A DNA stretch of 41,062 nt. Origin: a virus. Lineage: Duplodnaviria > Heunggongvirae > Uroviricota > Caudoviricetes. Below, in pieces: positions 1,301 to 4,058 of this stretch (position 1 is its first letter; each line of letters begins with the position of its first letter). Both the position numbers and the translations under genes were made by a program. The stretch is from positions 1 to 41,062 of the IMG/VR virus record IMGVR_UViG_2939177367_000003; one strand, written 5' to 3'. The notes beneath the pieces were generated by a model that saw only the letters and a program-made list of their open reading frames with translations, was not told the DNA's origin and did not search any database.

Positions 1301-1446
1301 ATGTTAAAGCTATTTGCAAAGTACACCTCGATTGGTGTGCTAAACACACTTATACACTGGGTGGTTTTTGGTATTTGTATCTATGCCGCGCATGCAAATC
1401 AGGCTCTGGCAAACTTCGCAGGTTTCGTTGTGGCTGTGAGCTTTAG
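1301..1446 (+). pseudogene. gtrA: gtrA (bactoprenol-linked glucose flippase) 5' fragment, interrupted by IS5 after ~48 codons
   Basis: Translation MLKLFAKYTSIGVLNTLIHWVVFGICIYAAHANQALANFAGFVVAVSF matches the GtrA N-terminus, then runs into the IS5 terminal repeat; the rest of gtrA is absent downstream of the IS. Confidence 0.75.
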
Positions 1447-2642
1447 GGAAGGTGCGAATAAGCAGGTCATTTCTTCCCAAGCTGACTCGCTGATTAAAAT
1501 TTCGCGGAGCTGGGCCGATTTTTTTCCCGCAAACACATCGAATCAGCCTATTTAGGCTATTTTTTCCACCATTTCTGGCGTTATTTCCGGTTTTTACTGA
1601 GATATCTCCCACTGACGTATCATTTGGTCCACCCGAAACAGGTTGGCCAGGGTGAATAACATCGCCAGTTGGTTATCGTTTTTCAGCAGCCCCTTGTATC
1701 TGGCTTTCACGAAGCCGAACTGCCGCTTGATGATGCGAAACGGGTGCTCCACCCTGGCACGGATGCTGGCTTTCATGTATTCGATGTTGATGGCCGTTTT
1801 GTTCTTGCGCGGATGCTGCTTCAAGGTTTTTACCTTGCCGGGGCGCTCGGCGATCAGCCAGTCCACATCCACCTCGGCCAGCTCCTCGCGCTGTGGCGCT
1901 CCTTGGTAGCCGGCATCGGCTGAGACAAATTGCTCCTCTCCATGAAGCAGATTACCCAGCTGATTGAGGTCATGCTCGTTGGCCGCGGTGGTGACCAGGC
2001 TGTGGGTCAGGCCACTCTTGGCATCGACACCAATGTGGGCCTTCATGCCAAAGTGCCACTGATTGCCTTTCTTGGTCTGATGCATCTCCGGATCGCGTTG
2101 CTGCTCTTTGTTCTTGGTAGAGCTGGGTGCCTCAATGATGGTGGCATCCACCAAAGTGCCCTGGGTCATCATGACGCCTGCTTCGGCCAGCCAGCGATTG
2201 ATGGTCTTGAACAATTGACGGGCCAGTTGATGCTGCTCGAGCAGGTGGCGGAAATTCATGATGGTGGTGCGATCCGGCAGGGCGCTATCCAGGGATAATC
2301 GGGCAAACAGGCGCATGGAGGCGATTTCGTACAGGGCATCTTCCATGGCACCGTCGCTCAGGTTGTACCAATGCTGCATGCAGTGAATACGCAGCATGGT
2401 CTCCAGCGGATAGGGCCGTCGGCCATTGCCCGCCTTGGGATAAAACGGCTCGATGACAGCGGTCATATTCTGCCATGGCAGAATCTGCTCCATGCGGGAG
2501 AGGAAAATCTCTTTTCGGGTCTGACGGCGCTTAGTGCTGAATTCACTATCGGCGAAGGTGAGTTGATGGCTCATGATGTCCCTCTGGGATGCGCTCCGGA
2601 TGAATATGATGATCTCATATCAGGAACTTGTTCGCACCTTCC
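1447..2642 (-). mobile_element. IS5 insertion sequence (~1.2 kb)
   Basis: 16-bp terminal inverted repeats GGAAGGTGCGAATAAG (1447-1462) and its near-complement CTTGTTCGCACCTTCC (2627-2642) bracket a full-length transposase ORF. Confidence 0.9.
1594..2574 (-). CDS. insH: IS5 transposase (InsH), 326 aa
   Basis: Translation [37 protein letters not shown]... is recognisable as IS5 InsH. Confidence 0.9.
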
Positions 2643-2985
2643 CTAGTAGTCATTGAACCAAATAAAAAGCATGAATATGGCACTTAGAGTATTAATCAAT
2701 CGATTACTATACAATCACTAACTCGTTTAACCAGAATTTATTACACTGCGTTATTATTTGTTTCTGAAATTTTTATTATGAGTCCCCCCATCAATTCTCT
2801 GTAAGAGAGTATGTGTATCAAGTAGTAGAATGAATTAACAATCAGCAGGCAGATCACTAGCTAAAATTTATGCAATCAAGCGTCAAAATGTATTATATAT
2901 TTACCAGCCATCTGGTATTCTTACCAAGATCCCCTTAGAATAATCAATAAATTTAATTTTTATTTAAAATATGTAGGCACTACTT

Positions 2986-4020
2986 ATGAGAAATGAAAAA
3001 ATTGATTTTTTAAGATTTCTTGGACTATCACTTATTGTGCTGGCTCATGTTAATCCGCCGTTAATAATTTCACAACTTAGAAATTTTGATGTACCATTAA
3101 TGTTTTTAGTTATGGGAATGTCTTTTTTCATAACTGAGTCAAGGCATACATCAACCTTTAACTACATAGCATCTAGGTTTAAACGGCTTGTAATTCCAAC
3201 ATGGTTTTTTTTCTCGTGTTTTTACATTGTTAGCGAGCTAATCTGGATGTATCAGGGACATTCAGAGTTTAAATACAGTGCAGGAACAATTGCTGCAACT
3301 TTTGCTTTATCTACCGGCATAGGTTATGTATGGGTAATAAGAATTTTTTTTAGTGTATCTATTTTAGCCATACTAACACCCAAATCAATATTAAACGCTT
3401 CCATTTATAAAATAACGTTCCTATCATTCGGCTTTATTATATTAAATACGTATTTCCTATCTTCTTTTTACGAATCTTTAGATGTAAATATAAGAGCTCT
3501 TGAAATAGGAACATTTATATCAAGCACCGCGGTTTATTTATGCGTATTTCTTATTGGATATAAGATATTACAGGAAGACAGAAATTCTATAATATTTATC
3601 TTATTTATAAGCGGTGTTATTTTTACAGTTGTGATGTCGTATTTGATGACACGAGAGGGTCACTTCATTCCTACTCAAGAAGATAAATATCCACCTGGAA
3701 TTTACTATATTTCATTTGCAATATTTATGTCTTTAGCATTTTTTGTGACTTCAGAAAAACTCATAAAAGCATTAAGCTACTCAAAATTATGGGGAATAGT
3801 GATGTTCATTTCATCAAATTCAATCTGGATTTATTTATGGCATATTGCTTTCATCGTTAACATAATAAATTTAAATATTAATTTCATGTTTAAATATATA
3901 CTTGTTTACTCATTTTCTATTGCTATTGTATTTATACAGGTTAAGCTAATTAAAAGCATAACCTCCACAATCAAAGATGATAGAAAGTCAAAGATTTTGA
4001 ATCAAATTTTTACAGGTTAA
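2986..4020 (+). CDS. Integral-membrane acyltransferase (acyltransferase-3 family), putative O-antigen/LPS acetyltransferase
   Basis: N-terminal KIDFLRFLGLSLIVLAHV motif (IDxLRxxxxxxxxxH), about 10 predicted transmembrane segments, very AT-rich gene with AT-rich upstream region; position next to int/gtrA is typical for serotype-conversion genes. Confidence 0.5.
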   Translation: MRNEKIDFLRFLGLSLIVLAHVNPPLIISQLRNFDVPLMFLVMGMSFFITESRHTSTFNYIASRFKRLVIPTWFFFSCFYIVSELIWMYQGHSEFKYSAGTIAATFALSTGIGYVWVIRIFFSVSILAILTPKSILNASIYKITFLSFGFIILNTYFLSSFYESLDVNIRALEIGTFISSTAVYLCVFLIGYKILQEDRNSIIFILFISGVIFTVVMSYLMTREGHFIPTQEDKYPPGIYYISFAIFMSLAFFVTSEKLIKALSYSKLWGIVMFISSNSIWIYLWHIAFIVNIINLNINFMFKYILVYSFSIAIVFIQVKLIKSITSTIKDDRKSKILNQIFTG

Positions 4021-4027
4021 CTAATTA

Positions 4028-4058
4028 GTGATTCGGCGTGATAATTACGCCGAATCAC
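4028..4058 (+). terminator. Stem-loop immediately after the acyltransferase stop
   Basis: Perfect 12-bp inverted repeat GTGATTCGGCGT / ACGCCGAATCAC with 7-nt loop; T-tract weak. Confidence 0.45.

Follow-up and report, generated by a model that had tools for sequence, protein, structure and literature searches.

The window analyzed here is a 41,062-nt stretch of Caudoviricetes DNA (Duplodnaviria; Heunggongvirae; Uroviricota) that makes up positions 1 to 41,062 of the IMG/VR record IMGVR_UViG_2939177367_000003. Near its first end lies a serotype-conversion locus in which an insertion sequence (IS), ISKpn26, separates the stump of gtrA from an intact gene for a membrane protein of the acyltransferase-3 (AT3) family. 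The AT3 gene is flanked by the integrase gene (int) and the gtr remnant and, at its other end, by the tail fiber genes of an SfII-like prophage. The locus is composed of the following features, in which L001 denotes the closest related locus:

1301–1446, plus strand: 5' remnant of gtrA, 48 codons and 2 nt of a 120-codon gene, 100% identical to L001 6210–6355.
1443–1446, no strand: left flank of the IS, TTAG, a YTAR target tetranucleotide read from the sequence.
1447–2642, minus strand: ISKpn26 (IS5 family), 1,196 bp, with terminal repeats GGAAGGTGCGAATAAG and GGAAGGTGCGAACAAG.
2643–2646, no strand: right flank of the IS, CTAG, unlike the left flank, read from the sequence.
2643–2985, plus strand: retained 343 bp of a former 871-bp AT-rich spacer, equal to L001 9658–10000 with 1–2 mismatches.
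2986–4020, plus strand: intact AT3-only acyltransferase gene (344 aa; Pfam PF01757), encoding a putative O-antigen O-acetyltransferase.
4027–4059, plus strand: hairpin with a 15-bp stem directly after the AT3 stop codon (dG -24.3 kcal/mol, z = -7.0 against shuffles).

The gtrA remnant matches only positions 1–48 of the 117 in the Pfam profile GtrA_DPMS_TM, and through nt 1446 it does not differ from the complete 120-aa gtrA of the sister loci described below. Both results confirm what a first-pass annotation of the sequence had stated, namely that the gene is cut after about 48 codons at the IS end. Its reading frame continues into the IS and stops at 1555, which yields an 84-aa fusion open reading frame (ORF). 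When the IS was computationally excised in three ways, an immediate stop resulted each time, gtrA was never restored, and no intact gtrA or gtrB appeared. Similarly, a tblastn search of the 41-kb window with the GtrA, GtrB, and GtrC proteins of a sister locus found no match besides the remnant, in agreement with the earlier statement that the sequence after the IS neither continues gtrA nor encodes GtrB. A full-length GtrA (~120 aa), GtrB (a bactoprenol glucosyltransferase of family GT2), and a type-specific GtrC, which together identify a functional gtrABC cluster, are not found in the window. With a gtrA remnant only and no gtrB or gtrC, the description of a degraded serotype-conversion locus holds.

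The element that interrupts gtrA ends in GGAAGGTGCGAAYAAG and has 16-bp terminal inverted repeats and a length of about 1.2 kb. An intact DDE transposase of 326 aa (NCBIfam transpos_IS5_4, 367 bits) is encoded on the minus strand (1594–2574) and is 97.9% identical to InsH1 of K-12. At the DNA level, the element shares 91.4% identity with K-12 IS5 and 98.6–99.2% with the ISKpn26 copies annotated in RefSeq; the label “IS5” given to it earlier is therefore correct for the family, the element being an ISKpn26 isoform. Insertion of an IS5-family element duplicates a 4-bp YTAR target. No such duplication surrounds the element in the window, where the flanks are TTAG and CTAG, each of them a valid target. 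These unequal flanks are the mark of a rearrangement and are no argument against the identity of the IS. As a control, the ISKpn26 copy of E. coli O19:H7 730V1 is flanked by a perfect CTAG/CTAG duplication, which indicates a simple insertion there.

The rearrangement was delimited by comparison with 10 sister contigs that encode an identical AT3 protein, drawn from public assemblies and read sets, those of Escherichia marmotae among them. All 10 display the order yfdC, int (385 aa), gtrA (120 aa), gtrB (307 aa, GT2), gtrC (546 aa, PF19528, STM0557-type), an 871-bp spacer, the AT3 gene (344 aa), and tail fiber genes. The gtrABC cluster is complete in most of them, and the IS is absent from the int-to-tail-fiber stretch in every one. 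According to blastn, window positions 1–1446 equal L001 4910–6355 at 100%, the window from 2643 corresponds to L001 from 9658, and what is missing from the window is exactly L001 6356–9657, or 3,302 bp. On the left side, intact L001 reads GTGAGCTTTAG joined to CTTCTTCGCG, and the window's IS begins right after TTAG; on the right side, it reads GGGAAGTT joined to CTAGTAGTC, and the IS ends right before CTAG. The deleted span comprises gtrA codons 49–120, the whole of gtrB and gtrC, the terminator that follows gtrC (L001 9209–9225), and 528 bp of the spacer. An IS5-associated deletion had been suggested at the outset, and this 3,302-bp gap, with the IS inside it and unequal flanks around it, upholds the suggestion. 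The closest intact relative, L001 (GCA_032029455.1), differs from the window's flanks at 0/1,446, 3/2,588, and 2/4,888 positions. Such near-zero divergence indicates that the deletion is recent, and the intact gtrABC of L001 that it struck a functional-looking cluster.

The sister loci also provide information on the lost genes. The deleted type-specific transferase is the 546-aa STM0557-type GtrC (PF19528) encoded at L001 7489–9129, whose best PHROG match is phrog_20513, a family of unknown function. Separate gtr-inactivating lesions are present in other sister loci, including a nonsense mutation in gtrB (W246*) in L008 and L010 and a 5-bp deletion (~8437–8441) that splits gtrC in L007. Including the window, gtr function has been lost in 4 of 11 loci, a small sample that was chosen by exact match to the AT3 protein.

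The same comparison bears on whether the acyltransferase came to the locus with the IS, as the first-pass annotation implied by placing it “instead” of gtrB and the type-specific gtr gene. Under such a replacement, the IS would have carried in a foreign, low-GC cassette with the acyltransferase gene, or acquired it by recombination, and the AT3 region does directly abut the IS. Its guanine-plus-cytosine (GC) content, 26–34% across approximately 2700–4200, lies below the 44–59% found on either side, as in foreign DNA, and confirms the report of a very AT-rich region after the IS. However, low GC is not peculiar to this cassette, given that the deleted gtr genes have a content of 35.6%, and the identical protein lies 871 bp downstream of gtrABC in the 10 IS-free loci, embedded in the same 343 bp of upstream and 1.2 kb of downstream DNA. 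The cassette therefore predates the IS event and is not a replacement; we find this alternative scarcely credible and consider it effectively refuted by the IS-free sister loci. By this comparison, the event is a loss of 3,302 bp from the cargo end with nothing gained in AT3, an ordinary kind of prophage decay in which the IS removed gtrABC and left the neighboring, pre-existing AT3 gene intact.

In terms of mechanism, the original cargo would have read int, gtrA, gtrB, gtrC, terminator, AT-rich spacer, AT3, IS4 remnant, and tail fiber genes, and ISKpn26 would have removed the 3,302 bp that lay between TTAG in gtrA codon 49 and CTAG, 343 bp ahead of the AT3 start codon. The element could have inserted at one of the two sites and reached the other by intramolecular transposition; alternatively, two copies in the same orientation, one at each site, could have recombined homologously with the same outcome. 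Either route would leave a single IS with non-matching flanking tetranucleotides. The 84-aa gtrA::IS fusion ORF has no protein record, and both 30–31-nt junction strings are absent from the GTDB representative genomes. The search thus yielded no intermediates by which recombination between two IS copies could be told from intramolecular transposition.

ISKpn26 is recurrent in the cargo region of argW prophages of E. coli. In 730V1 (L018, NZ_CP061764.1, 5170–7572), it separates intS from an unrelated AT3 gene of 354 aa that adjoins a tailspike gene, and its orientation is that of the window's copy. In E. coli SW07164 (L017, 5669–7581), a copy truncates gtrB and has unequal flanks, CTAG and CTAA, which point to another deletion.

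The gene that survived the deletion encodes a secure member of the AT3 family, as judged from its sequence, within an uncharacterized subfamily. A profile hidden Markov model search matched the 344-aa ORF to Pfam Acyl_transf_3 (PF01757) at 63.7 bits, against a cut-off of 31, over residues 4–316 and profile positions 2–318 of 326. In an alignment of 49 family sequences, with relatives at 32–47% identity, R10 and H21 of the R-X10-H motif in helix 1 (R10-FLGLSLIVLA-H21) are invariant, as are both arginines of the RXXR motif R64-F-K-R67. An R/K-X10-H motif in transmembrane helix 1 and an RXXR motif in the first cytoplasmic loop are treated as essential in AT3 proteins (PMC9558356). Approximately 10 hydrophobic helices (19-mers) are predicted, which fits the bundle of about 10 transmembrane helices typical of the family; together with the Pfam match and the motifs, they uphold the initial description of a multi-pass membrane acyltransferase. 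The AlphaFold2 model is all-helical, with a predicted local distance difference test score (pLDDT) of 94.8 and a predicted template-modeling score (pTM) of 0.92. Its sole meaningful matches among solved structures are to HGSNAT (template-modeling scores of 0.52–0.57), an acetyl-CoA-dependent lysosomal membrane acetyltransferase, and a sequence search of the PDB found no homologue. The protein consists of a single Pfam domain, with no second domain and no fused SGNH domain, which makes it an “AT3-only” protein like the Oac proteins of Shigella.

The exact 344-aa sequence is on record as an acyltransferase of Escherichia marmotae, and the next relatives are only 48% identical. No family was found for it in NCBIfam or PHROGs, a tblastn search of 50,697 phage records and a DNA search of phage records found no match to the gene, and a DNA search of 5,426 complete E. 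coli genomes at distant sensitivity found the gene absent, with only the IS4 remnant matched. The subfamily has about 700 detectable relatives. Those at 41–48% identity are located at E. coli prophage ends, adjoining int or tail fiber assembly genes, and those on viral contigs lie 0.7–4 kb from a contig end; neither group has adjacent gtr genes, which implies that this AT3 subfamily does not depend on a neighboring gtr cluster. The genomic context of distant relatives in Enterobacter and Methylophilus gave no clue to substrate.

From these data, we think it quite probable that the window is an SfII-like argW prophage in which a deletion associated with ISKpn26 removed gtrABC and kept a pre-existing AT3 gene, probably leaving O-antigen acetylation without glucosylation. 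The lost gtr module would have supplied GtrA as flippase, GtrB as undecaprenyl-phosphate glucose synthase, and GtrC as the type-specific transferase. With R10...H21 and R64xxR67, the AT3 protein would take an acetyl group from cytoplasmic acetyl-CoA and pass it across the inner membrane through its helical bundle; at the periplasmic face, it would then O-acetylate one of the sugars in the O-antigen repeat. Family and position make O-antigen acetylation the most likely function of the protein. The ancestral locus appears to have encoded both modifications, as SfII does with gtrII and oacD, and the change is likely to have been from glucosylation plus acetylation to acetylation only. We infer the acceptor glycan, the expression of AT3, and the acetylated, non-glucosylated phenotype. 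The earlier proposal of acetylation rather than glucosylation is thus borne out for the loss of the gtr module and not for a newly acquired acetylation: AT3 was there before, and acetylation, if the presumed chemistry is right, was retained.

The AT3 protein might instead act elsewhere than on the O-antigen backbone, either on another envelope glycan (enterobacterial common antigen, capsule, or core) or on the glucose branch added by GtrC, in which case it would now be an orphan. AT3-only proteins act on many acceptors (PMC9558356), no characterized close relative of this one was found, and within E. marmotae every observed copy of the gene has gtrABC upstream, with the window as the sole exception. 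On the other hand, relatives at 44–48% identity in E. coli prophages adjoin int or tail fiber assembly genes without gtr, and the contig-end location of the viral-contig relatives likewise suggests a gtr-independent function. The position in a serotype-conversion module, moreover, parallels that of oac in Sf6 and oacD in SfII. For these reasons, we regard a different acceptor as a tentative and rather unlikely alternative to O-antigen acetylation.

Several observations weigh against the reading of an IS-driven gtr deletion with retained O-antigen acetylation. On the side of the enzyme, the match to OacD is weak and confined to the N-terminal part (BLASTP E-value of 3e-9, 36% identity over 77 aligned columns covering query residues 1–71), with hhalign giving a probability of 90% over 181 columns. 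AT3 has no significant similarity to Sf6 Oac or E. coli WecH in pairwise and profile comparisons, no characterized member was identified in its subfamily, and the more distant relatives (35–46%) are stand-alone chromosomal genes with uninformative neighbors. Additionally, the gene might be silent, with 528 bp of its upstream spacer gone and its promoter not located by scans.

On the side of the deletion, the junction rests on one assembly and was not found in any other record. It could in theory be an assembly artefact, in which gtrB and gtrC in fact lie between an ISKpn26 copy in gtrA and a second one upstream of AT3, and the assembler collapsed the repeat; a collapsed pair of insertions would also produce non-matching flanks. 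However, repeat collapse usually breaks contigs and rarely joins them cleanly, and the window is continuous over 41 kb from int to a LysR-family gene of the host. Even under this scenario, which we consider very improbable, gtrA would be disrupted.

A further question is whether the deletion affected the expression of AT3. In the intact locus, the terminator after gtrC (L001 9209–9225) indicates that AT3 is its own transcription unit, and after the deletion the gene keeps its proximal upstream region and its downstream hairpin. That hairpin, at 4027–4059, is a probable transcription stop or stabilizer by its predicted fold, and a terminator scan did not call it, as a T-run is absent. Promoter scans of the retained and deleted parts of the spacer detected no plus-strand sigma-70 consensus and nothing better than in shuffled sequences, and are uninformative.

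The deletion could also be viewed as an adaptive or regulatory event, a selected antigenic switch that also de-silenced the AT-rich AT3 gene, given that AT3 lost the gtr terminator and 528 bp of AT-rich DNA from its upstream side and now has an IS5-family element 343 bp upstream, as in the activation of the bgl, flhDC, glpFK, and fucAO operons by IS5. Activation of silent operons by an upstream IS5 has been documented (PMC2753651, PMC11894529); 730V1 offers a second intS-ISKpn26-AT3 case in the same orientation; and independent gtr-inactivating lesions occur in the sister loci, as described above. In glpFK, activation needs the 3' 177 bp of IS5 beside the promoter (PMC2753651), and in fucAO it occurs by read-through from the ins5A promoter toward the activated gene (PMC11894529). 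In the window, by contrast, AT3 is faced by the 5' end of the IS, which carries the ins5A promoter, and transcription of ins5A runs in the direction leading away from AT3. Neither geometry is present, and we rejected both activation models for this locus; an activating role for the IS could then only be a non-specific disruption of silencing. Furthermore, the 354-aa AT3 protein of 730V1 showed no significant similarity in our comparisons and is unrelated beyond the family level, and IS5-family elements prefer YTAR sites, which are plentiful in AT-rich DNA. A selected or de-silencing event is therefore improbable in our judgment, and a little more so is its strongest form, a one-step selected switch in which gtrABC would be excised, 528 bp of probably H-NS-bound DNA and the gtr terminator would be stripped, and a silenced AT3 gene of a new O-antigen O-acetyltransferase class would be turned on. 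If it were true, selection against glucosylation in E. marmotae would explain why gtr lesions recur among the sister strains.

Among known systems, the prophage most closely resembles SfII, whose cargo reads int-gtrA-gtrB-gtrII-transposase-oacD-tail fiber assembly and whose OacD is a 6-O-acetylase of the O-antigen N-acetylglucosamine (PMC9558356). Both have int, gtrA-gtrB-gtr(type), and then an AT3-only acyltransferase and a transposase before the tail fiber genes; the structural modules are 98.3% identical, and the N-terminal half of the AT3 protein has a weak similarity to OacD. Nevertheless, the int/att module of the window is IntS-like (argW) rather than that of SfII, with int adjoining gtrA in the integrated prophage. 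The intact sister loci read gtrC-AT3-transposase, whereas SfII reads gtrII-transposase-oacD, and the deleted GtrC is a 546-aa STM0557-type protein (PF19528) and not GtrII. In the window, the gtr genes are gone.

After the deletion, the window's int-(IS)-AT3 layout is essentially that of Sf6, another argW-integrating prophage with an AT3-only enzyme (OacA, encoded by oac) between int and the tail genes. The histidine of transmembrane helix 1 and the RXXR motif are shared by both proteins (alignment; PMC9558356), as is the AT3-only type, but their similarity is not significant beyond the family motifs, and the Sf6 protein belongs to another PHROG and another AT3 subfamily.

The CPS-53 (KpLE1) remnant of K-12, which reads argW-intS-gtrA(yfdG)-gtrB(yfdH)-gtrS(yfdI), has the same integration site and the same int-gtrA-gtrB order. 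The window's int and gtrA show about 95–96% DNA identity to many E. coli genomes, but the E. coli loci are without the AT3 gene, for which the 5,426 complete genomes gave no DNA match.

Loss of gtr function by IS insertion, frameshift, and nonsense mutation, with reversion of the glucosylation-dependent serotype, has been described in S. flexneri (PMC3728103); for instance, IS1 interrupts gtrII of SFL124, and frameshifts occur in gtrII, gtrX, and gtrB. The sister loci show the same spectrum of gtr lesions. The event in the window differs in being a 3.3-kb IS-adjacent deletion of all three genes in E. marmotae and not a simple insertion. Both the loss of gtr by IS or mutation in S. flexneri and the combined gtr and oac cargo of SfII are already documented, and the E. 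marmotae genomics paper (PMC11546641) makes no mention of gtr genes, acyltransferases, SfII, or ISKpn26. What our analysis adds is modest, namely an uncharacterized AT3 subfamily; a mosaic of an IntS/argW module, an STM0557-type GtrC, and SfII-like structural genes in E. marmotae; and, beside the IS, a clean 3.3-kb deletion for which an intact, nearly isogenic locus is at hand for comparison.

The locus represents a clean natural example of how a converting prophage with two functions for O-antigen modification can lose one of them to an IS, which is relevant to in-silico serotype prediction and to variation in phage receptors and vaccine antigens in Escherichia and Shigella. The strain and the near-isogenic, intact L001 (GCA_032029455.1) would form a convenient pair for assigning a function to the AT3 subfamily.

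Beyond the locus, the window contains an apparently complete prophage of about 40 kb, which extends from the argW/int end to the LysR-family gene of the host at 40127–41062 and has ERF and repressor genes in its early region, next to that host gene. The structural, tail-to-terminase module at 7039–24360 (17.3 kb) is 98.3% identical to Shigella flexneri phage SfII, whereas the integrase and early regions are not SfII-like. The window is a mosaic, in a host other than Shigella, of SfII-type morphogenesis genes and an IntS/argW module. Escherichia marmotae is the host suggested by the sister contigs and by the record of the exact AT3 protein. An Rfam scan of the whole window returned no RNA family. 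Two further genes frame the locus:

1–1158, plus strand: IntS-type tyrosine integrase at the argW-proximal prophage end (Pfam Arm-DNA-bind_3, Phage_int_M, Phage_integrase).
4207–4939, plus strand: frameshifted IS4-family transposase remnant (NCBIfam transpos_IS4_2 on the ORF at 4450–4845).

The integrase DNA is about 95–96% identical to E. coli intS and, in the sister loci, directly follows yfdC. The IS4 remnant is 91.6% identical to the transposase region of SfII, the gene that separates gtrII from oacD, and compared with SfII its position relative to the acyltransferase gene is switched to the opposite side and its orientation relative to the tail genes is reversed. It belongs to the 2643–5230 block present in all sister loci and is therefore older than the deletion.

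In addition, 27-nt inverted repeats resembling cix/gix crossover sites (5204–5230 and 7093–7119) enclose a 1.9-kb segment with tail fiber and tail fiber assembly genes (5231–7092). Relative to the window, this segment is inverted in several sister loci, such as L005 and L006. Of the Pin/Gin-type invertase gene beside it, a minus-strand stump at 5054–5185 is left, about 31 codons long (Pfam Resolvase N-terminus). Because the block carrying the stump is common to all sister loci, the inversion is either older than the truncation or driven in trans by another invertase.

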